The position numbers and the translations under genes are program-made. From the NCBI GenBank assembly GCA_019449555.1, contig JAGRPN010000363.1:2884-66883 (forward strand): DNA of 64,000 bases. The letters are read 5' to 3'. Under the pieces are notes generated by a model, which had not been told where the DNA came from, did not search any database, and was given only the letters and a program-made list of their open reading frames with translations. Positions 28,260 through 38,249 of the stretch are shown here, piece after piece. The first letter of the stretch is position 1. Each line of letters opens with the position of its first letter. The DNA comes from Ramlibacter sp. (GTDB lineage: Bacteria > Pseudomonadota > Gammaproteobacteria > Burkholderiales > Burkholderiaceae_C).

Positions 28260-28742
28260 TCAGACGCCGAGCGCCAGCCGGGTCGTGCTCTTGACCTCTT
28301 CCATCACGGCATAAGTGCGGGTCTCGCGCACGCCCGGCAACTGCCACAGCACCGTGCCCGCGAACTCGCGGTAGGCCTGCATGTCGGCCATCCGGGTCTT
28401 GAGCAGGTAGTCGAAGCCGCCGGCGACCATGTGGCATTCCATGATCTCCTCGTGCGCCTGCACCGCGGCCTTGAAAGCCTCGAACACGTTGGGGGTGGTG
28501 CGATCGAGCAGCACCTCGACGAACACCAGCATGCCGGCCCCCAGTTTGAGCGGATTCAGGCGGGCCTCGTAGCCCAGGATGTAGCCTTCGCGCGTCAGGC
28601 GCTGCACGCGCGCCAGCACTGCCGTCGGCGATAGCGCCACGCTTTCCGCCAGCTTGAGATTGGAGAGGCGGCCGTCGCGCTGCAGGACATTCAGGATTTT
28701 CAGGTCGATGCGGTCAACATCGGCTAAAGATTCACTCATCAT
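28260..28742 (-). CDS. putR: Lrp/AsnC-family regulator, probable proline utilization regulator
   Basis: DRIDLKILNVLQRDGR, LSPTAVLARVQRL, ECHMVAGGFDYLLK, ETRTYAVMEEVK. Divergent from putA. Confidence 0.85.
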   Translation of the reverse strand: MMSESLADVDRIDLKILNVLQRDGRLSNLKLAESVALSPTAVLARVQRLTREGYILGYEARLNPLKLGAGMLVFVEVLLDRTTPNVFEAFKAAVQAHEEIMECHMVAGGFDYLLKTRMADMQAYREFAGTVLWQLPGVRETRTYAVMEEVKSTTRLALGV

Positions 28743-28756
28743 TAGAGAATTATCCC

Positions 28757-28787
28757 GTGAAATCGGCTAATTTGGCGTGAAATTCAC
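28757..28787. promoter_or_regulatory. AT-rich putR/putA divergent promoter with repeated GTGAAAT and palindrome GTGAAATTCAC
   Basis: GTGAAAT at 28757 and 28777, palindrome 28777-28787. Assignment to PutR is inference. Confidence 0.35.
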
Positions 28788-28836
28788 TGCGAAGCGCGCC
28801 ACCATCGCAGCATCCGCGTTTCCACCGAGCCACGCC

Positions 28837-31800
28837 ATGACCTCACAGCGCCTGCCCCTGCCGTACCGGCCCGAGGCCGACATCGTCCGCCGCCATTTGC
28901 ATGCCCTGGGTCCGGGCCTCGATTGGGCGGCGGTCGCGCGCACGGCCCGGCCCTGGGTGCAGGCCGTGCGCGAGCACCCGCCGCCGTTCTGGGCGATGGA
29001 AAGCCTGTTGAAGGAGTACCCGATCTCCAGCGCCGAAGGGCTGGCGCTGATGCGCCTTGCCGAAGCGCTATTGCGCGTGCCGGATGCGCAGACCGCCATT
29101 GCGCTGACGGCGGACCAGCTCGGGCGCGCGGATTTCGAGGGCACCGGCGACAGCGCGCTGGCGCGCCTGTCGCAGACCGCGATCGCCCTGTCGAAAAGAT
29201 TCCTGCCCGATCCTTCGACCGGCTCCGGGCAGCCGGCGCATGAGACGGGCCTGTGGGCCAAACTCGGCGCGCGCAGCGTCGTGGCGGCAACCTTGCGCGC
29301 CGTGCAATTGCTGGGCCGCCAGTTCGTGCTGGGGCAGGACATGGCCGAGGCGTTGCACGAATCGGACGTGGCCCGGCGCAAGAGCGAGAGCCTGCGCGTT
29401 CCGCCGCCGGGCCGCCCCAAGGCGGAACAGCCCCCTCGGGGGGCAGCGCAGCCCGAAGGGCAAGCGTGGGGGCTAAGGTATTCCTACGACATGCTGGGCG
29501 AAGGTGCGCGCACCGATCACGACGCGCTGCGCTACCTCGCGAGTTACGAGCACGGCATCGACGCGATCGGCGGCCGCTCCCGCGCCGACCGGCCGGTGGA
29601 AGCCAACGACGGCATCTCGATCAAGCTCAGTGCGCTGCATCCGCGCTACGAGGAAGCGCAGCGCGAACGCGTGCTGGCCGAGCTGGTGCCGCGCGTGTGG
29701 ACGCTCTGCGAGCGCGCCGCCCGGGCCCACATCGGCCTCACCATCGATGCCGAGGAAGTCGACCGGCTCGAACTGTCGCTGGAAGTGTTCGAGGCGCTGG
29801 CGGCCCGCGTGGCCGAGCAGCTTCCGCAGTGGCAGGGCTTCGGGCTGGCGCTGCAGTCGTACCAGACCCGCGCCCTGGAGCTGGTCGAGCATGTCGCCGT
29901 GCTCGCGCGCCGCTTGCGGCTGCGCCTGATGTGCCGGCTGGTCAAGGGCGCCTACTGGGACGCCGAGATCAAGCGGGCGCAGGAGCTCGGCATGCCGCAT
30001 TACCCGGTGTTCACGCACAAGCACCACACGGATATCTCGTACCTCGCTTGCGCCCGGGCCCTATTGCAGGCGCAGGACGTGATCTACCCGCAGTTCGCCA
30101 CCCACAACGCGGGCACCATCGCGGCGATCCTGCAGATGGCAGCGGGCACGTCGCCGACCTTCGAGCTGCAGCGGCTGCACGGCATGGGTGTGGGCGTGTA
30201 TCGCGAAGTCTCGCGATACGCGCCGCATGTTCCGGTGCGCCTGTACGCGCCGGTCGGGCAGCACCGCGACCTGCTCGCGTATCTCGTGCGCCGCCTGCTC
30301 GAAAACGGCGCCAACAATTCGTTCGTGCACCAGCTCGCCGACGAATCGGTCGGCATGGACCGGCTGCTGGCGTCGCCGCTGCGCCTGGAAGCCACGCCGT
30401 CGCTGCCCTCGCCCCCACGCATATTCGGCGCGCAGCGCCAGAACAGCACGGGCGTGGACCTCGCGGTGCAAGCCATGCGCGAGCCCTTATTGGCGGCGCT
30501 GGAGGCAACGCAGGTCCCCGCCGTGCCTGCCTTCGATGCCGCCCAGGCCGGCGCGGCGGTCGCGCGCTCGGCCTCGGCGTACCCGGCTTGGCGCGGGGCG
30601 CCGGTCCGCGCCCGCGCGGCCGTGCTGCGGCAGGCGGCCGATGCCATGGAAGCGCAGTTGGCGCGCCTGTGCGCGCTGCTGTTGAAGGAGGCGTTCAAGA
30701 CCTGGGGCGACTGCGTGGCCGAAGTGCGCGAGGCGGTGGACTACCTGCGCTACTACGCCAACGAAGCCGAGCGGATCATGCAGCCCATCGCGCTGCCCGG
30801 ACGCGACGGCCAGGCGATGCTCGGCATCACCGGCGAGAGCAACGAATTGCGCCTGACGCCGCGCGGGCCCTGGGTGTGCATCAGCCCCTGGAATTTCCCG
30901 CTCGCGATCTTCACCGGCCAGGTGGCCGCGGCGCTGGCCACCGGCAATACGGTGCTGGCCAAGCCGGCCGAGCAGACGCCCGCCATCGCGCTGGAAGCGG
31001 TCAAGCTGTTGCACGCCGCCGGCGTCCCGCGCGACGCGCTGCAGTTGCTGCACGGGCCGGGCGAGACCGTGGGCGCCGCGCTGGTGGCGCAGCCAGGCAT
31101 CGCCGGCGTCGTGTTCACCGGTTCCACGCAGGTGGCCAGGATCATCCAGCGCTCGCTCGCCGCCAAGGACGGTCCGATCGTGCCGCTGATCGCGGAAACC
31201 GGCGGCATCAACGCGATGGTGGTCGACTCCACCGCGCTGCCCGAGCAGGTGACCGACGCCGTGATGCAAAGTGCGTTCCGCTCCGCCGGCCAGCGCTGTT
31301 CGGCGCTGCGGCTGCTGTGCGTACACGAGAGCATTGCCGACGGCGTGATCGAGATGGTGCGCGGCGCGGCGCGCGAACTGGTGACGGGGGACCCCGCGCA
31401 ATTGCGCACCGACGTCGGCCCCGTGATCGACGCACAAGCGTACGAGGGTCTGCAAGAGCAACTGCGCCGGCTGCATGCGCAGGCCCGCGCGCTGCTGCCG
31501 CCGGGTGAGTTCCCGCCGGCCACGCGCCTGATCCCGCCGCAAGCGTTCGAGGTCGAGCGCATTGCCGACGTGCAGCAGGAGATCTTCGGTCCGGTGCTGC
31601 ACATCGTGCGCTGGGGCGGCGACCCGCTGGCCGTGATCGACCAGGTCAACGCGCTGGGCTACGGCCTGACGCTCGGCATCCAGACCCGCATCGACAGCCG
31701 CGCGCTCGCGTTGGCGGCGCGCGCGCACATCGGCAACGTCTACGTCAACCGCAACATGATCGGCGCCGTGGTGGGGGTGCAGCCGTTCGGCGGCGAAGGG

Positions 31801-31929
31801 CTGTCCGGCAGCGGCCCGAAGGCCGGCGGCCCGCATTACCTGTATCGCTTCTGCGCCGAGCAGACGCTCACCATCAACACGACGGCAGCGGGCGGCAACG
31901 TGCAGCTGCTGGCGCAGATCGCGTCCTAG
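28837..31929 (+). CDS. putA: Bifunctional proline dehydrogenase / P5C (glutamate semialdehyde) dehydrogenase, no N-terminal RHH domain
   Basis: SYDMLGE, ISIKLSALHPRY, IDAEE, RLVKGAYWD, FATHN, YLVRRLLENGAN, ISPWNFPLAIF, FTGS, ETGG, GQRCSA, EIFGP. Confidence 0.95.
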   Translation: MTSQRLPLPYRPEADIVRRHLHALGPGLDWAAVARTARPWVQAVREHPPPFWAMESLLKEYPISSAEGLALMRLAEALLRVPDAQTAIALTADQLGRADFEGTGDSALARLSQTAIALSKRFLPDPSTGSGQPAHETGLWAKLGARSVVAATLRAVQLLGRQFVLGQDMAEALHESDVARRKSESLRVPPPGRPKAEQPPRGAAQPEGQAWGLRYSYDMLGEGARTDHDALRYLASYEHGIDAIGGRSRADRPVEANDGISIKLSALHPRYEEAQRERVLAELVPRVWTLCERAARAHIGLTIDAEEVDRLELSLEVFEALAARVAEQLPQWQGFGLALQSYQTRALELVEHVAVLARRLRLRLMCRLVKGAYWDAEIKRAQELGMPHYPVFTHKHHTDISYLACARALLQAQDVIYPQFATHNAGTIAAILQMAAGTSPTFELQRLHGMGVGVYREVSRYAPHVPVRLYAPVGQHRDLLAYLVRRLLENGANNSFVHQLADESVGMDRLLASPLRLEATPSLPSPPRIFGAQRQNSTGVDLAVQAMREPLLAALEATQVPAVPAFDAAQAGAAVARSASAYPAWRGAPVRARAAVLRQAADAMEAQLARLCALLLKEAFKTWGDCVAEVREAVDYLRYYANEAERIMQPIALPGRDGQAMLGITGESNELRLTPRGPWVCISPWNFPLAIFTGQVAAALATGNTVLAKPAEQTPAIALEAVKLLHAAGVPRDALQLLHGPGETVGAALVAQPGIAGVVFTGSTQVARIIQRSLAAKDGPIVPLIAETGGINAMVVDSTALPEQVTDAVMQSAFRSAGQRCSALRLLCVHESIADGVIEMVRGAARELVTGDPAQLRTDVGPVIDAQAYEGLQEQLRRLHAQARALLPPGEFPPATRLIPPQAFEVERIADVQQEIFGPVLHIVRWGGDPLAVIDQVNALGYGLTLGIQTRIDSRALALAARAHIGNVYVNRNMIGAVVGVQPFGGEGLSGSGPKAGGPHYLYRFCAEQTLTINTTAAGGNVQLLAQIAS
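29398..29472 (+). repeat. Palindromic element apparently inserted in frame in putA (about 25 codons)
   Basis: Hairpins GCCCCC-TCG-GGGGGC (29430-29444) and GCCC-GAA-GGGC (29451-29461). Encodes a P/G/A-rich peptide just before the conserved YSYDMLGE. Confidence 0.65.
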
Positions 31930-32609
31930 CGCGCGGCCCAGCCCCCGGAGACGGGGAATGCCTGCCCGACGAAGCAGTCGGCCGCCTCGCTGCACAGGTA
32001 GGCCGCGAACTGCGCATCCTCGCGCGCCGAAACGAGCCGCCCCAGCGGCACCTCGCGCTGCAGCCGCTCCTGGAAACGCGCATTGGCTTGCACCTCGGGC
32101 GGGAAGTAGGTCGGGTTGTCGACGAAATTCTGCGCGATCGCATTGACCTGCACGTTGTGCGGCGCGGCCTCGACGCCCAGCGCCTGCACGTAGGCCAATT
32201 GCGCGCCGCGCGCTGCGCTGTAGCTGGAAGCGCGCTTCATGCCGCGCAGCGCCGAGGCGCTGCCGATCACCAGGATCTTGCCTTTGCGCCGTTCCATCAT
32301 CTGCGGCAGCACGGCCCGTACCAGCCGCGGCAGCGGATCGACCAGGTGCGCGAACACCGACCGCCATTCGTCTTCCTGGACTTCGTGCGCCGGCGTGCTG
32401 GGCGCCGGCAGCGCGAGGTGCGCGACGAGGATGTCGACCGTGCCGGCCGCCGCGACGATCCGCGCCGGCAGCGCCGGGTCCACCAGCGCACGTTCGTCCT
32501 CGATCACGGTCGCGCCCTGCCGGGCGAACTCCGCGCACAGCGCCGGACCCATGAAGTCGCGGCACTGCGTCACCAGCACGCGCTTGCCGGCCAGCGCGGA
32601 TGCATTCAT
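31926..32609 (-). CDS. hheD: Halohydrin dehalogenase (haloalcohol dehalogenase/epoxidase), HheD-like SDR-fold enzyme, 227 aa
   Basis: T-X4-F-X-G (TQCRDFMG) replaces TGxxxGxG, S-X12-Y-X3-R triad (SASALRGMKRASSYSAAR), QNFVDNPTYF loop. Confidence 0.85.
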   Translation of the reverse strand: MNASALAGKRVLVTQCRDFMGPALCAEFARQGATVIEDERALVDPALPARIVAAAGTVDILVAHLALPAPSTPAHEVQEDEWRSVFAHLVDPLPRLVRAVLPQMMERRKGKILVIGSASALRGMKRASSYSAARGAQLAYVQALGVEAAPHNVQVNAIAQNFVDNPTYFPPEVQANARFQERLQREVPLGRLVSAREDAQFAAYLCSEAADCFVGQAFPVSGGWAAR

Positions 32610-35600
32610 GCGCGCTCCCGTTTGCGCCGCAGCAGGTCGTCCACCGTCGCGCTCAGTTTGCGCAGGTCGACCGGCTTGGTCATGTGCGCGTCGAAGCCCG
32701 CAGCCAAAGCCTCGCGTTCGTCCGCTTCCTGGCCCCAGCCTGTCGCGGCGATCAGCACCATGCGCTTGCCCCATTCGGTGTCGCGGATCTGGCGCGCGAC
32801 CTCGTGTCCGTTCAGGTCGGGCATGCCGATGTCGAAGATGCCGATGTCGGGCTTCTGACGCCGCGCCTCCCGCAGCGCGTCCTTGCCGCCCTTGACGAGC
32901 GCCGTCGTGAAGCCGGCGATTTCCAGCAGCCGCGCAATGCCCCAGCCCGCGTCGATGTTGTCGTCGGCGATCAGGATCAGGCCGCGCTTGCGCGAGGAAG
33001 CCGTGGCAGCGAGCGCCATCGATGGCGGCGCGACCGGATGCGGCGTGCCGACCGCCCGCGCAGTGGCACGCGCGGCCGGCAGGATGACGCGGAATTCGCT
33101 GCCCTGGCCCAAGCCGGGCGACGAAGCTTCGACGCGCCCGCCGTGCATTTCGACGATGCTCTTGACCAGCGCCAGCCCGATGCCCAGCCCGCCGTGATGC
33201 CCGGCCACCGGCACGGCCTGGGTGAACATCTCGAACATGTGCTCGATCTGGCCGGAGTCCATGCCGACGCCCTTGTCGGCCACACTGATCGCCACCTGCC
33301 CGTCTTCGAGGCGCGCCTTCAGGGCGATCTGGCCGCTGGCCGGCGTGTACTTGATGGCATTCGTGAGCAGGTTCGAGAGCACCTGGCCGAGCCGCAGCGG
33401 GTCCGCGTCGAGCTCTACCGGAAAGGGCGGCAGGTCCACCTTCAATTCATGGCCGGCCGCTTCGAGCAGCGGGTGGGTGGCCTCCAGCGCCGACTGCACG
33501 ACCGAGGTCAGCATGACCGGCTCGCGCTGCAGCTCGAGCCGGCCCAGTTTCAGGCGCGCGACATCCAGCAGGTCGTCCAGCAGCGTCTTCATGGCGCCGG
33601 CCTGCCGCTTGACCACCTGCGCGGCCGAATCGCGGTCGCTGTCCGGCAGCCCTGCCGTCAACAACAGCGCCGCCGCGCTGTCGATGGAGGCGAGCGGGTT
33701 GCGCAACTCGTGCGACAGCACCGCGAGGAACCGGTCCTTGGCCGCATCGGCGGCCTGCAACTCGGTGCGCGCCAGCTCGTTCTGCTCGAGGGCGCGCAAC
33801 AGCTCGGCCTGGCTGCGCTCGAGCGCCTGTTGCGCTTCGCGCGCGGCGCTCTGGTCGCGCAGGATCTTGACGAAGCCCACGGCCTGGCCCTGCGCATCGC
33901 GCATCAGCATCATGGCGCCGCTGGCCCAGAAGCGGGCGCCGTCCTTGCGCTGGTGGAACCGGTCATCGGCGGCGCGCCCGTCCGCGAGCGCCGCCTGCAT
34001 CTCCTTCTCGGGCGCACCGGCCGCGCGGTCTTCCTCGGTGAATATGACGTCCGCCACCCGGCCCAGCGCCTCCTGCTCGGTGTAGCCCAACAGCCGCTGC
34101 GCGCCGCTGTTCCAGATGGTCACCCGGCGCTCCAGGTCGGTCGAGAAGATCGCGAACTCCGTCGCGTTTTCCACCACCAGGCGCAGCCGTTCCTCGCTGG
34201 TGCGCAGCGCTTCGGCCGCCTGCTTCTGCTGCGTGATGTCGCGCGCGATCGCCGTCGCGCCGATCACCTGGTTCTGTGCGTCGCGGATCGGCGAGATGCT
34301 CAGGGCGACATGGATGTCGCTGCCGTCCTTGCGCCGGCGCACCGTCTCGAAATTGCTGATCGGCGTCGCCTCGCGCAAGCGCCTCGTCATCTCGAGCTGT
34401 TCGGCGCCGCGGTCCGGCGCGAGCATCGTGACCGGTTGCCCGATGGCCTCGTCGGCGCTGTAGCCGAACATCCGCTCGGCGCCCGCGTTCCAGCTGAGGA
34501 TCGTGAGATCCATTGCGCAGCTGAGGATCGCATCGGTGGACGAAGCCACCACCGCCGACAGCCACAGGCGCACGTCCTCGGCGCGCTTCCGTTCGGTGAT
34601 GTCGATGAACGAGACCACCACCCCGCCGATGTGGTCGTCCATCGTCCGGTACGGCAACAGGCGCGAGAGGAACCATTTGCCGTCCGGCAGGCCCACTTCG
34701 CGCTCGACCGGCACCAGCCGCTGCAATACGCGCTCGGCATCCGTCCGCAATTGCGGGTAATCGAGCCGGGTGGCCAGATCGGCCAGCGGCCGGCCCAGGT
34801 CGGTGGCGATCAGGTTGAACAGCGCCACCGCGGACGGCGTGTAGCGCGTGATGCGCAGTTCGCGGTCGAGGAAGACCGTCGCGATCGCGGTGGCGTCCAT
34901 CAGGTTGTGGATGTCGCTGTTCGCATGGCTGAGCTCGTCGACCTTGGTCTTGAGCTCCTGGTTGACGGTCGAGAGTTCCTCGTTGATCGACTGCAGTTCT
35001 TCGCGGCTGGTCTCCAGCTCCTCGGTGGCCGAGCGCAATTCCTCGTTCATGGCCTGCAGCTCTTCGTTGCTGGCCTTGAGCTCCTCGGTGGACGCGTCGT
35101 GTTCCTCGACCGTGTCGCGCAGGTGTGTCTTGAGCCGCTCCAGCTCGCGCTCCAGGTGCCGCGCCACCGGGTCGGCCTTGATGCGCTCGGGCTTGGCCGA
35201 AGCCGGCTCCTGCGCGCCGCCCGCCGGCTGGTCGCTGAGCGTGACCATGAACAGCTCGGCGCCGAGATCCTTGACCGGCGACACGCGGACCGCGATGCCC
35301 CGGCTCTCGCCCCCCAATTCGACCGGGCTCACCAGCACTTCCGCAGTGGACTGGGTCTCGGCCGCCTGGTACAGCGCGGCGCGCAATTCGATCCGCAGGC
35401 TGGGGTGCACCGCGCGCAACAGGTTCTTGCTCGGCTCGCCGCCGCTGTACTGCAGGAACCGGCCGGCGCTGGCCGACAGGTGCACGATGTCATGCTCGCC
35501 ATCGACCAGGATCGAAGGCGGCGCGAGCGCCTCGAGCAGCTTGAAATGCAGCTCGCCCCACGACGTGCTGCGCCCTTCCAGCGGCAGCCCGCCGCGTCCC

Positions 35601-37237
35601 ACAACGGCGGCCTGCTGAAACGATCGCGCGGAGATGGCCGGGGCGGTGGACGCGTGCTTGTGCGCTTCCAGCGCCAGGGCCAGCGTGCCCGGACCCACCG
35701 GGATCGGCACCTCGGCGCGGTGGGTGGGACGCTGCATGAAGATGCGATGCTTCTTGTCCAGCACGGAAAACAGCGCGGTGACGTCCTCGATCGATTCGGA
35801 CGAACCCAGGAACAGCAGGCCTTGGGGCCGCAAGGCGAAATGGAAGATGTCGAACAGCCGCTGCTGCGCTTCGCGGTTCAGGTAGATCAGCAGGTTGCGG
35901 CACGAGATCAGGTCCAGCCGCGAAAAGGGCGAGTCCTTCAGCAGGTCGTGCGGCGCGAACAGCACCAGCTCGCGCACTTCGCGCCGCACCTTGTAGCCGC
36001 CGGACTCGCGCACGAAATAGCGGCGCAGCCGGTCCTCGGGCACGTCCGCTTCGATCGTCGCGGGATAGCTGCCTTCGCGCGCCGCCTTGATCGCCTGCTC
36101 GTCCAGGTCGGTTGCGAAGACCTGCAACAGCGGCGGCGCATCGAGCTCGCGCGCTTTTTCCGTCAGCAGGATCGCCAGCGAGTACGCCTCCTCGCCGGTG
36201 GCGCAGGCCGGCACCCAGACCCGGATGGCGTCGTTCGGGCCCTTGCCCTTGAACAGCTCGCCCAGGTGCGCTTCCAGGCCAGCGAACGCGTCGGCATCGC
36301 GGAAGAAATTCGTGACGCTGATCAGCAGGTCCTGCAACAGGGCCCCGGCCTCGCCCGGGCGCGTGCGCAGGCAAGCCAGGTAGGCGGGCATGTCGGCGAC
36401 GCCGTTGACCTGCATGCGGCGCGCGATGCGGCGCACGACGGTGGCGCGCTTGTAGCAGGAGAAATCGCGGCCGGTGCGGGTGCGCAGGAAATTCAGCACG
36501 TCGCGCAGCGCGGCTTCCTCCGGCGGCATGGCCGGCTGCGCCGGCGGCGCTGCCGGGGGTGTGTCCTCCTCCGGCGGCAATTTCAATTGCTTCTCGATGC
36601 GGAAATACTGCAGCAGCTGCGGCCCCATCTCGGCGACCGGCAGCACCCAGTCCACCATCCCGGTGGCGATCGCCGAGCGCGGCATGCTGGCGTGCTCGGC
36701 CTCCTCGGGATCCTGCGCGACCGTGAGGCCGCCGCGTTCCTTGATGCGCTTGATGCCGATCGCCCCGTCGCCATCGGCGCCCGACAGCACGATGGCCGCC
36801 GCATGCGGGCCGTGAGTGTCGGCCAGCGTGCGGAAGAAATGATCGACCGACACATGCCGCCCGCGCGGGCTGGCCGGTTCGTCCGCCAGAGTCAGCGAGC
36901 CGTCCAGCGCGCGGATGAGTTTGCCCGGCGGGATGACGTAGACGTTGTTCGGCGCGACGCGCATGCTCTCGTTGACCTGGTGCACGGGCATCGCAGTGCA
37001 GCGCTGCAGGATTTCCGGCAGCGTGCTGACGTGCTCCGGCGACAGATGCATGATCACGACGAACGCCTGGCCGGAGTCGGCGGGCATCGCCTTGAAGAAA
37101 GCCTGGAGCGCGGGGATGGCACCGGCGGAGCCTCCCAGGCCGACCAGGGGCGTCATCTGGTAGCCCCGCGTGGGCACCACGTTATCGATGAGATCGGCCA
37201 GCTCTTCCTCAGCGTGGTCGGGATTCAGTTCGGACAT
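32606..37237 (-). CDS. CheB-CheR-coiled coil-multi-PAS-histidine kinase-receiver hybrid protein (1543 aa)
   Basis: CheB GGSAG/MHLSP/SGADGDG, CheR PACATGEEAYS and CRNLLIY, xEEL heptads, three PAS-like blocks, H-box LSHELRNPL, receiver ADDN..DIGMPDLNG..KP. Confidence 0.92.
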   Translation of the reverse strand: MSELNPDHAEEELADLIDNVVPTRGYQMTPLVGLGGSAGAIPALQAFFKAMPADSGQAFVVIMHLSPEHVSTLPEILQRCTAMPVHQVNESMRVAPNNVYVIPPGKLIRALDGSLTLADEPASPRGRHVSVDHFFRTLADTHGPHAAAIVLSGADGDGAIGIKRIKERGGLTVAQDPEEAEHASMPRSAIATGMVDWVLPVAEMGPQLLQYFRIEKQLKLPPEEDTPPAAPPAQPAMPPEEAALRDVLNFLRTRTGRDFSCYKRATVVRRIARRMQVNGVADMPAYLACLRTRPGEAGALLQDLLISVTNFFRDADAFAGLEAHLGELFKGKGPNDAIRVWVPACATGEEAYSLAILLTEKARELDAPPLLQVFATDLDEQAIKAAREGSYPATIEADVPEDRLRRYFVRESGGYKVRREVRELVLFAPHDLLKDSPFSRLDLISCRNLLIYLNREAQQRLFDIFHFALRPQGLLFLGSSESIEDVTALFSVLDKKHRIFMQRPTHRAEVPIPVGPGTLALALEAHKHASTAPAISARSFQQAAVVGRGGLPLEGRSTSWGELHFKLLEALAPPSILVDGEHDIVHLSASAGRFLQYSGGEPSKNLLRAVHPSLRIELRAALYQAAETQSTAEVLVSPVELGGESRGIAVRVSPVKDLGAELFMVTLSDQPAGGAQEPASAKPERIKADPVARHLERELERLKTHLRDTVEEHDASTEELKASNEELQAMNEELRSATEELETSREELQSINEELSTVNQELKTKVDELSHANSDIHNLMDATAIATVFLDRELRITRYTPSAVALFNLIATDLGRPLADLATRLDYPQLRTDAERVLQRLVPVEREVGLPDGKWFLSRLLPYRTMDDHIGGVVVSFIDITERKRAEDVRLWLSAVVASSTDAILSCAMDLTILSWNAGAERMFGYSADEAIGQPVTMLAPDRGAEQLEMTRRLREATPISNFETVRRRKDGSDIHVALSISPIRDAQNQVIGATAIARDITQQKQAAEALRTSEERLRLVVENATEFAIFSTDLERRVTIWNSGAQRLLGYTEQEALGRVADVIFTEEDRAAGAPEKEMQAALADGRAADDRFHQRKDGARFWASGAMMLMRDAQGQAVGFVKILRDQSAAREAQQALERSQAELLRALEQNELARTELQAADAAKDRFLAVLSHELRNPLASIDSAAALLLTAGLPDSDRDSAAQVVKRQAGAMKTLLDDLLDVARLKLGRLELQREPVMLTSVVQSALEATHPLLEAAGHELKVDLPPFPVELDADPLRLGQVLSNLLTNAIKYTPASGQIALKARLEDGQVAISVADKGVGMDSGQIEHMFEMFTQAVPVAGHHGGLGIGLALVKSIVEMHGGRVEASSPGLGQGSEFRVILPAARATARAVGTPHPVAPPSMALAATASSRKRGLILIADDNIDAGWGIARLLEIAGFTTALVKGGKDALREARRQKPDIGIFDIGMPDLNGHEVARQIRDTEWGKRMVLIAATGWGQEADEREALAAGFDAHMTKPVDLRKLSATVDDLLRRKRERA

Positions 37238-37262
37238 CCTGCCCTCGGTGGGGGAGGACGGA

Positions 37263-38249
37263 TTATGCGCTGTTCATTTCTCCCTCGACAAGCCGGCTGA
37301 GCAGGTGCGCCTGATCGCGCACTCGGTCGGCTTGGCGCTGGCCGGCCTGCGCCTGCACCGGGTCGCCGGTGGCCTCGGCCACGGCTGCCATGCGGCGCAG
37401 CAGGATCTCGCGTTCCTGCAGCGCCCGCACGCTGCTCCACAGGGCCTGCTCGGCCTGCTCGGTCTGGGCGCTTTCCAGCGTGCCGACCGTGAACGCATGG
37501 CCCGTATGGCAGCGGTAGCGCAAGGGTTGCGCCTCGTTGAGTTCCCACAGCCCCCCGCCGCAGTCGGGACAGGACAGCCCCGACGGCTTGCCGGCCGCCG
37601 ACAGGTTTTCCATGACGTGTTTCCCTTCGAAAAGCGCCTGCTCCCGCTGGAGCTGGGCCGGATGCGGCTGCGCCGGCGCGGCAGCATCCTGGCCTACGAG
37701 CTGCACCAAGGTCGCGGCAATCTCCCCGATCGCCAGCGTGTAGTCCACCGACACGTTGCGCAACGCGCTGGCGGGCATGCTTGGTGCCACCGCCGTGACT
37801 GGGTCCTGCACGATGGCCGTGCCCCCGCACTGCTTGATCGCCGCCAGCCCGGCCGTGCCGTCGTCCAGGTCGCCGGTGAGGACGACACCGATCGCGCGAT
37901 CGCACCAGGCCAGCGCGGCCGAGCGGAACAACGGGTCGATCGCCGGGCGCGCATGGTTCTCGCGCGCTCCACGGCCGAGCAGCGCCCGGTCTTCCGTGAA
38001 CGTCATGTGATGGTCGGGCGGCGCGACATAGATCGTGCCGGGCACCAGCGCCTGCCCGTGTTGCGGATGCACGGCAGGCAAGGCGCCGCGCCGCTCCAGC
38101 AACTGCGGCAGGATGCTGTGCCGGCTGCCCACGTGCAGCACGATGCCGATCACCGCGTCCATGGCCTTCGGCAGTCCCGCCACCAATTCGAGCAGCGCCG
38201 CCACGCCCCCGGCGGAGGCGCCGATCACGATGGCATGCGGTCGATTCAC
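37263..38249 (-). CDS. Stand-alone CheB-type methylesterase without receiver domain, with Cys/His-rich C-terminal domain
   Basis: IGASAGG, VLHVG, RPAIDPLFRSAA, LTGDLDDGTAG, C-terminal CPDCGG...YRCHTGH. Confidence 0.88.
   Translation of the reverse strand: MNRPHAIVIGASAGGVAALLELVAGLPKAMDAVIGIVLHVGSRHSILPQLLERRGALPAVHPQHGQALVPGTIYVAPPDHHMTFTEDRALLGRGARENHARPAIDPLFRSAALAWCDRAIGVVLTGDLDDGTAGLAAIKQCGGTAIVQDPVTAVAPSMPASALRNVSVDYTLAIGEIAATLVQLVGQDAAAPAQPHPAQLQREQALFEGKHVMENLSAAGKPSGLSCPDCGGGLWELNEAQPLRYRCHTGHAFTVGTLESAQTEQAEQALWSSVRALQEREILLRRMAAVAEATGDPVQAQAGQRQADRVRDQAHLLSRLVEGEMNSA

Follow-up and report, generated by a model that had tools for sequence, protein, structure and literature searches.

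The 64,000-nt window studied here (Ramlibacter sp., NCBI GenBank assembly GCA_019449555.1, contig JAGRPN010000363.1, positions 2,884 to 66,883, forward strand) contains a putA gene in which a palindromic segment lies in frame inside the proline dehydrogenase (PRODH) domain. The locus raises the question of what this segment is and how it came to be part of a metabolic enzyme. A preliminary description, made from the sequence alone, had proposed a dispersed repeat resembling a miniature transposable element with inverted repeats (MITE) or a repetitive extragenic palindromic (REP) sequence, turned into a protein loop in the manner of the Rickettsia palindromic elements. Our analysis makes it very probable that positions 29398 to 29478 are one copy of a repeat family of about 85 nt, widespread in Comamonadaceae, which was inserted anciently in putA. 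The gene and its insert are as follows:

28777..31929, forward strand: putA, bifunctional proline dehydrogenase/1-pyrroline-5-carboxylate (P5C) dehydrogenase; GTG-start open reading frame (ORF) of 1050 aa with no internal stop
29398..29478, forward strand: inserted repeat copy, 81 nt or 27 codons, in frame, encoding the peptide VPPPGRPKAEQPPRGAAQPEGQAWGLR

The boundaries of the insert are fixed by empty orthologous sites, which read CTG CGC followed directly by TTC TCC TAY GAC. Most PutA proteins of the same genus run from (N/H/Q)LR straight into FSYDMLGE, giving the clean gap of 27 codons that an ortholog alignment had been predicted to reveal, and in the PutA of the window VPPPGRPKAEQPPRGAAQPEGQAWGLR sits between KSESLR and YSYDMLGE. 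Filled alleles with the same insert occur in two other, independent assemblies (G014 and G090), of which G090 confirms the boundaries; the window's own genome (G000) is a 5.1-Mb draft in 458 contigs. The preliminary description had recognized a length that is a multiple of three, but its figure of about 75 nt is replaced by exactly 81 nt. Since the length is a multiple of three, putA stayed open, and its ORF is continuous, with a G+C fraction of 0.90 at third codon positions (GC3). The rarity of the CTA AGG codons at the junction, remarked on earlier, is real (CTA accounts for 0.6% of Leu codons and AGG for 5.2% of Arg codons), and direct reading bears out the second open forward frame (..GPPQGGTAPSGGSAARRASVGA..), which other copies of the repeat do use.

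The host protein combines a PRODH barrel with a P5C dehydrogenase domain, is full length and open, and has homologs on which the Pfam families Pro_dh, Aldedh, and Pro_dh-DNA_bdg were detected. The same PutA in the databases (P0002) counts 1030 aa against the 1050 aa of the ORF, and the true putA start may be 28837. PDB entry 3HAZ, the solved B. japonicum PutA, matches at an E value of 1e-281 over query residues 28-195 and 232-1046. The 36 residues in between (196-231) stand where 3HAZ has a 7-residue linker, in agreement with the earlier statement that PutA normally runs almost directly into strand beta1. The insertion site is the short linker that leads from the last helix of the alpha domain to strand beta1 (YSYDMLGE) of the PRODH barrel. 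In an AlphaFold2 model built from 115 homologs, the insert is a coil with a predicted local distance difference test score (pLDDT) below 50, located between helix 169-185 and strand 214-219 (P0002 numbering), the remaining PRODH barrel being confident. Thus modeled, the 27-residue Pro/Gly/Ala/Gln-rich loop is probably disordered, and the element appears to be translated and tolerated by PutA.

The anatomy of the repeat was derived from an alignment of 125 copies from about 100 genomes, in which the unit measures 84 to 88 nt. The putA copy, which reaches 79 bits with the covariance model (E 1.7e-14), has these parts:

29398..29428, forward strand: hairpin 1, stem GTTCCGCC (29398-29405) paired with GGCGGAAC (29421-29428)
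29406..29420, forward strand: apical block of hairpin 1, conserved GCCGGGCCGCCCCAA, with its own GGG/CCC mini-stem
29430..29444, forward strand: hairpin 2, GCCCCC-TCG-GGGGGC, nearly invariant family-wide, with 99.5% of cells paired
29451..29461, forward strand: hairpin 3, GCCC-GAA-GGGC, 3 nt shorter than the canonical form
29462..29478, forward strand: 3' tail, conserved AAGCGTGGGGGC followed by TAAGG, the final six bases being CTA AGG (Leu-Arg)

Hairpins 2 and 3 had both been named in the preliminary description, to which the longer hairpin 1 is now added. Across the family, hairpin 1 has a hypervariable stem of 7 to 9 bp that uses all four Watson-Crick pair types at most positions and closes on a conserved block, GCCGGGCCGCCCCAAGG, with a GGG/CCC mini-stem. 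The consensus continues with a linker, AGCGCAG, between hairpins 2 and 3, a canonical hairpin 3 composed of 2 bp, a bulged A, 3 bp, and a GNA triloop, and a tail of the form AAGCGTGGGGGC-nCAT, that is, ending in GGGGGC-nCAT, with CTCATG as the canonical last six bases. According to this consensus, the canonical form of hairpin 3 would bring a TGA stop into the putA reading frame.

Single-sequence folding is not significantly better than that of shuffled GC-rich sequence (z of -1.56 for the putA copy and of -1.25 in a second case), and the structure was therefore judged on covariation alone. In the 125 copies, all seven stem pairs and all three mini-stem pairs of hairpin 1 have changed on both sides, and five pairs of hairpin 3 covary. 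The latter constitutes independent evidence because hairpin 3 was absent from the search model, whereas hairpin 2 yields no covariation evidence either way, being nearly invariant. The named structure as a whole has 93.3% of its cells paired and both-side changes in 16 of 21 pairs, with a covariation score of 0.354 against 0.107 for shuffled alignments (0 of 500 reach 0.354) and at most 0.052 with slid partners. The counts of G·T and A·C mismatches (25 versus 17) reveal no strand asymmetry. Furthermore, sub-lineages with a common stem 1 are spread over unrelated targets and over different genomes, which indicates that the stem is inherited and not copied from the target. A stem 1 copied from the target at insertion is ruled out by the same observation and by the empty putA site, which lacks the stem. 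A search of Rfam 15 with the putA copy and with a canonical copy gave only noise (best E values of 3.9 and 4.2).

The repeat is abundant far beyond putA. The window holds only one copy, and a BLAST search with an 86-nt query found about 14 further places in the draft genome of the window; an nhmmer profile recovers 17 copies there and the covariance model 19. The search proposed earlier thus finds 17 to 19 relatives of the 81 nt, mostly intergenic. With the covariance model, the repeat was found in 100 of 101 genomes of the genus, some with at least 44 copies, and in 121 of 150 sampled genera of the GTDB family, each represented by one genome. Copy number within the family ranges from 0 to about 100 per genome, the Polaromonas-named metagenome-assembled genome (MAG) GCA_030689685.1 (4.1 Mb) having 98 copies at E <1e-6, or about one per 40 kb. 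The exact core pattern is present in genomes named Polaromonas, Hydrogenophaga, Ramlibacter, Rhodoferax, Variovorax, Ottowia, and Acidovorax, and also in Xenophilus, Curvibacter, Methylibium, Rubrivivax, and a few other Burkholderiales. Intergenic head-to-tail arrays of four copies occur as well (e.g., G104:C66:96755-97090, L122, and L136). Literature searches on the core motifs and on repeats in Comamonadaceae gave no match, and we know of no published name for this three-hairpin repeat family.

The insertion in putA is one of several in coding sequence. Six of the 17 copies in the genome of the window lie inside high-GC3 ORFs and interrupt Pfam domains, all in the sense orientation and with all three forward frames in use. 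Their hosts are PutA, phosphoenolpyruvate (PEP) carboxylase, the isocitrate dehydrogenase kinase/phosphatase AceK, a thiamine pyrophosphate (TPP)-dependent enzyme, an Amidohydro_2 protein, and apparently the C-terminal tail of an alpha/beta hydrolase. Comparison of filled and empty sites gives additions of 84 nt in PEP carboxylase, 78 nt in AceK, and 84 nt in the amidohydrolase, and these inserts are absent from five close relatives. The copy in the TPP enzyme, equally absent from these relatives, is a truncated one that stands in place of about 25 nt of the host gene, so that the net gain is 48 nt. Together with the 81 nt of putA, every one of these differences is a multiple of three. In other genera, Pfam-confirmed in-frame copies were found in GcvT, biotin carboxylase, PGI, AcrB (two copies), a UvrA-like protein, a peptidase M20, and an APH kinase.

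These lengths bear on the possibility that the segment is removed before or after translation, as an intron or intein would be, leaving a mature enzyme without the loop. In favor of such a device are the strong structure of the element and its position exactly at a domain boundary. On the contrary, group I and II introns are far larger than 81 nt, inteins are far larger than 27 residues, and no Rfam family matches. Some PutA inserts switch frame internally (P0043, P0039, P0097, P0108, P0116, and P0118, with ..APSGGSDPRSGGAWG.. and FPAGPPQGELAP..), and in them paired indels within the element restored the frame. Multiple-of-three lengths and frame-restoring indels are expected only if the element is translated, and we consider removal of the segment very improbable.

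The remaining copies in the genome of the window fill short spacers between genes, including narG-narH (twice), lptB-rpoN, nusB-aminotransferase, the region downstream of ribD (C413), and others, and most of them run antisense to the transcribed strand. Four of these copies have a stem 1 that pairs with the Shine-Dalgarno sequence, GGAGG, of the gene downstream. Among the 125 copies, for which gene calls are approximate, those in co-directional spacers are antisense in 24 cases and sense in 3, whereas genic copies are sense in 18 cases and antisense in 8. The sense frames encode peptides rich in Pro, Gly, Ala, Gln, Ser, and Arg, and the antisense frames encode peptides containing Cys, His, Phe, and Tyr; a filter for flexible, hydrophilic loops may explain the sense bias of genic copies.

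Some individual loci can be described further. Two paralogous nitrate reductase operons (C330:338-414 and C183:1245-1318; L258 and L259) carry an antisense copy exactly between narG and narH, in both of which stem 1 (TGCCTCC/GGAGGCA) pairs with the narH Shine-Dalgarno sequence and the apical mini-stem has a common compensated GAG/CTC change. These two copies may have arisen by operon duplication and not by separate insertions. Another copy (C150:20045-20125, L263) fills the spacer between lptB and rpoN. In a related genome (G022), the ortholog of the TPP enzyme is split over two contigs, at the end of C345 and the start of C13 (L228 and L229), exactly at the site of the element in the genome of the window, which suggests that the repeat breaks short-read assemblies.

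Such breaks lend some color to the notion that the putA insert is itself an assembly or binning artifact of a 458-contig draft. The same insert is present, however, at the same site and in the same frame in the two independent assemblies named above and in dozens of proteins from NCBI, ENA, and JGI, and the ORF is continuous with its high GC3. We regard an artifact as so improbable that it can be left aside.

The history of the putA copy was followed through its relatives. The intact junction pattern is found in only 3 of 118 genomes of the genus (G000, G014, and G090). In the PutA tree, the window's genome (G000) groups with G005, which retains only the 3' third of the element, and with G006, which retains only 15 nt. 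The 3' end of the element in putA reads CTC ATG in G090, CTC ACA in G014, CTA AGG in G000, and CTG or CTC AGG in G005 and G006. Because G090 has the canonical CTC ATG and G014 has CTC ACA, the CTA AGG of the window is a mutated element end and does not represent host codons. In both G005 and G006 the derived CTN AGG is present and the original host Leu-Arg is lost; it thus seems that the Leu-Arg ahead of beta1, a conserved position, is now supplied by the element.

A wider survey took the best 115 PutA hits in a collection of 5.8 billion proteins, a sample biased to insert carriers since the query region contained the insert. Among these, 86 have an insert of 26 to 31 residues at the site, 4 have a longer one, 9 have remnants, and 16 have none. 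Of the named PutA proteins, those nearest to the one in the window are labeled Ramlibacter. One of the longer inserts consists of two tandem in-frame copies, with 57 extra residues (P0007, L252, NCBI GCA_038213665.1). In the tree of the 115, a clade of 81, which includes Polaromonas- and Hydrogenophaga-named hits, is entirely filled, and the clade of 34 that contains the window's PutA is a mosaic of filled, partial, and empty sites requiring at least six changes. For 11 orthologous putA copies, taken from different lineages, the DNA was obtained, and all of them carry stem-1 variants of GTTCCGCC. It had been proposed that a single copy in the genome, together with the same loop in distant PutA orthologs, would speak against a repeat insertion. 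The element is not single copy, and the loop does occur in Polaromonas- and Hydrogenophaga-named PutA; since the DNA there, too, is that of the element, the finding leaves the insertion standing and shows that it is old.

These sequence comparisons are read most simply as an insertion that happened once, long ago, and was afterwards deleted repeatedly, in part or completely. Repeated site-specific insertion or homing-like transfer between alleles, in place of one ancient event, would also account for the sister relationship of filled G014 and empty G019 (support 100/100) with filled G000 in another clade, for the state changes forced on the larger tree, and for an element of G000 that is 94% identical to that of the Polaromonas-named P0014 with flanks at about 75%. 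The 81-nt hairpin-3 variant, common to G000, G014, and P0014, is likewise distributed contrary to the PutA tree. Against this alternative, all putA copies share the stem-1 lineage, orientation, frame, and left junction, whereas other copies in the same genomes differ in their stems; the target sites of the other insertions have no motif in common with the putA site; and the partial remnants directly document loss. In addition, the Arg codon before beta1 is always CGN in outgroup PutA, and four "empty" alleles of the genus have AGG or AGA, as in the G000 clade, which fits deletion scars that keep the last two codons of the element. Repeated insertion is thus an unlikely explanation, and a single old insertion with later losses is preferred.

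Under this reading, a stop-free 81-nt copy would have entered putA before the genus split from the Polaromonas- and Hydrogenophaga-named PutA lineages, where a short linker joins the alpha domain to beta1 of the PRODH barrel. With the frame kept, the element would have been translated as a 27-residue Pro/Gly/Ala/Gln-rich loop that the enzyme tolerated. In the lineage of the window, the last two codons of the element would then have mutated to Leu-Arg, restoring the conserved Leu-Arg before beta1, and sister lineages would subsequently have deleted most of the remaining element. We infer the order of these events from the distribution of alleles.

The putA copy is also conserved in a manner that its role as a loop does not account for. 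Among the orthologous putA copies, pairwise identity is on average 0.77 in the element; it is 0.63 in the upstream 240 nt and 0.73 in the downstream 450 nt of the conserved barrel, where third codon positions reach 0.55; between G000 and P0014 the element stands at 0.94. Within the first 54 nt of the element in 9 orthologous copies, to which the codon-position test was applied, identity is 0.72 at first, 0.90 at second, and 0.88 at third positions, the last rising to 0.94 without the decayed P0079. Since third positions are more conserved than first ones, neither selection on the peptide nor the choice of sequences by protein similarity explains the conservation. Compensatory changes also occur within the putA locus itself, in hairpin 1 (GTTGTGCC/GGCACAAC and GTTTCGAC/GTCGGAAC) and in hairpin 3 (CCC/GGG, CGC/GCG, CAC/GTG, and GGC/GCC). 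On the evidence of these sequences, something beyond tolerance is acting on the putA insert, and the pattern points to a constraint on the nucleic acid rather than on the peptide. In two genomes the hairpin-2 loop reads TGA in the putA copy alone and TCG in the other copies, which speaks against simple homogenization by gene conversion, and conversion as the sole cause of the conservation is unsupported at this marker. At hairpin 3, the discordant variant hints at exchange limited to the element. Two causes may underlie the conservation, namely selection acting on the nucleic acid, or repair of a templated or conversion type.

These data give some room to a reading, compatible with an origin by insertion, in which the repeat is a module selected by the host for mRNA stability, processing, a translational pause at a domain boundary, or protein binding to DNA. 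The three-hairpin element would be a functional nucleic-acid module of operon spacers, selected even inside coding sequence, with the 27-residue loop as a by-product. The putA copy would then have kept its synonymous sites, and its stems by compensatory change, from a time earlier than the split of the genera. The third-position conservation, the compensatory double changes in hairpins 1 and 3, the putA-specific TGA loop, for which homogenization is not evident, and the strong orientation bias of spacer and genic copies are in its favor. Furthermore, all three hairpins are perfect in the old putA copy, whereas hairpin 2 is broken in the lineage-specific copy of PEP carboxylase. On the other side, the insert was partly or wholly deleted many times in the genus of the window while the gene was kept, and the P0079 lineage let it decay. 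The element also lies in either orientation in mRNAs according to context, which argues against a single RNA function, and templated repair of a quasi-palindrome or occasional gene conversion, at which the hairpin-3 discordance hints, could maintain the stems. We therefore hold this module tentatively, as a possibility with less than even support, and retain the tolerated insertion of a dispersed repeat as the better account of the putA segment.

It is important to consider that some observations weigh against this account of an old, tolerated insertion of mobile DNA. The survey from which part of its age is read is enriched in insert carriers. The history is not purely vertical, since the hairpin-3 variant is discordant with the PutA tree. 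A merely tolerated insert should drift, yet its third positions are far more conserved than those of the flanking gene. Finally, no transposase, terminal inverted repeats, or target-site duplication was found, TnpB-type and other transposases not having been searched, and mobility is deduced from the dispersed distribution and the lineage-specific insertions.

The ends of the element offer no inverted repeat: the 5' end is formed by the variable stem-1 arm, the 3' end reads GGGGGC-nCAT, and the two are not complementary. The five filled/empty comparisons (putA, PEP carboxylase, AceK, amidohydrolase, and TPP enzyme) show no consistent target duplication, and what looks like a duplicated Leu-Arg in putA arose secondarily, by mutation of the end of the element itself. 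Four filled/empty pairs, with left flanks GCGC, GCAC, CGGC, and GCCA(C), have no clear target motif. A parent insertion sequence (IS) was not found at the only close inverted pair of copies, on C413, with no systematic search for long versions of the element; the region between this pair contains the riboflavin (rib) operon and nusB in place of a transposase. Even so, the element is or was, we infer, mobile DNA.

The genome of the window does possess a gene of the REP-associated tyrosine transposase (RAYT) type, a Y1_Tnp gene at C168:4912-5241, and 94 of 101 genomes of the genus have one, nearly always in single copy. The repeat on either side of this gene is another one, TTGGGGTCAGATTCC..; it forms a perfect inverted repeat of 23 nt, AATTGGGGTCAGATTCCAATTAA, at 1414-1436 and 2218-2240 of L211. 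The core of AATTGGGGTCAGATTCCAATTAA recurs about 14 times in the same genome, partly as inverted doublets (C389, C98, and C275), and is a second family, of the classical REP type or its doublet form (REPIN). Within 1.5 kb of 12 RAYT loci there is no convincing three-hairpin copy, a single partial match of 8.7 bits (E 0.54) being located at the window genome's own locus. Nor does the presence of RAYT track element copy number, since G073 has a RAYT without the element and several element-rich, incomplete MAGs have the element without a RAYT. An association of the element with RAYT is rejected on the flanking repeat and on the 12 loci.

Next to putA in the window, one further gene belongs to its context:

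28263..28766, reverse strand: AsnC/Lrp-type regulator (PutR-like), divergent from putA, with Pfam HTH_AsnC-type and AsnC_trans_reg domains

A neighbor of AsnC/Lrp type also adjoins other putA loci. Two genes downstream of putA, beyond a short-chain dehydrogenase/reductase (SDR) gene, positions 32609-37273 (reverse strand) encode a hybrid protein of 1555 aa that is unrelated to the repeat and has CheB methylesterase, CheR methyltransferase, several PAS, histidine kinase, and receiver domains.

Textbooks know small palindromic repeats that invade housekeeping genes in frame only from Rickettsia and from a few further genomes that are reduced or pathogenic, the Rickettsia elements having reportedly been described by Ogata et al. 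in Science in 2000. With the present repeat, such invasion is a common occurrence in a large family of bacteria living free in soil and water, and it affects central enzymes such as PutA, PEP carboxylase, AceK, PGI, GcvT, AcrB, and biotin carboxylase. One and the same site offers alleles in which the element is full, tandem, frame-switched, truncated, or deleted, and through these the birth and death of a protein loop can be traced directly. Synonymous conservation, stem compensation, and opposite orientation preferences raise the question of whether the element is selfish only or serves as an RNA or DNA signal, and the lead of greatest interest is that the old putA copy is conserved at the nucleotide level. 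In practical terms, the family will fragment assemblies and mislead both the alignment and the annotation of Comamonadaceae proteins, and it merits a covariance model in public RNA and repeat libraries.

How does the three-hairpin family compare with known systems? The mycobacterial interspersed repetitive units (MIRU) are repeats of 40 to 100 bp in operon spacers, with one preferred orientation and overlapping the stop and start signals of the flanking genes. They differ in being tandem direct repeats with small ORFs, not palindromes with three hairpins, and are not reported in frame inside enzymes. Closer in structure are the REP sequences, the bacterial interspersed mosaic elements (BIME), and REPINs, which are also GC-rich hairpin repeats in short operon spacers with compensatory stem changes and occasional tandem arrays. 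On the contrary, the present unit is a three-hairpin one of 84 to 88 nt rather than a palindrome of 20 to 40 nt or an inverted doublet, it has no GTAG or CGTC head, and about a third of its copies in the genome of the window are genic. The REP label given earlier consequently fails, as the RAYT of this genome is flanked by a different repeat.

The IS200/IS605 family and the palindrome-associated transposable elements (PATEs) share with the repeat the absence of terminal inverted repeats and target duplication, hairpins near both ends, an orientation bias, and seemingly precise loss. They differ in that no cognate TnpA with these ends was found here and that the four filled/empty pairs have no 4- to 5-nt target motif at the left end; the only Y1 gene of the genome pairs with the AATTGGGGTCAGATTCCAATTAA repeat and not with the three-hairpin one. 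By resemblance, single-strand (HUH-type) mobilization would nevertheless fit best, given the hairpins, the lack of inverted ends and duplication, the seemingly exact losses, and the orientation bias. Bacterial MITEs that fuse in frame with genes include Coxiella QMITE1, intragenic copies of the enterobacterial repetitive intergenic consensus (ERIC), and the Neisseria Correia elements (PMC5896051, PMC10969869, and PMC3184786). The repeat resembles them as a small, nonautonomous sequence able to add peptide segments to host proteins (same sources). MITEs are defined, however, by terminal inverted repeats and target-site duplications derived from a parent IS, and the three-hairpin repeat has neither, so that the MITE label of the preliminary description does not hold.

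Its comparison with the Rickettsia palindromic elements, on the other hand, was apt, in view of the in-frame copies in five further genes of the genome and in many other genes of Comamonadaceae. As the Rickettsia elements are summarized in PMC10969869, both are dispersed palindromic repeats that are intergenic and, unusually often, in frame in unrelated housekeeping genes. The two are also alike in placing the inserted peptide in a surface loop (for the putA copy, as predicted by the model) and in lacking a transposase, terminal inverted repeats, and target duplication, with old copies inherited vertically and decaying. The differences are that the Rickettsia elements belong to reduced, AT-rich intracellular bacteria and measure 100 to 150 nt, whereas the three-hairpin family occupies free-living, GC-rich Betaproteobacteria of 3 to 7 Mb with a unit of about 85 nt. 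The present family further stands apart by its three covariation-defined hairpins, the contrast in orientation between genic and intercistronic copies, and the synonymous-site conservation of the putA copy. By analogy, it is best described as a new repeat family that behaves like the Rickettsia palindromic elements in free-living Betaproteobacteria; it would be an analog and not a member, unlikely to be homologous, with its sequence set apart by composition and host taxon only.

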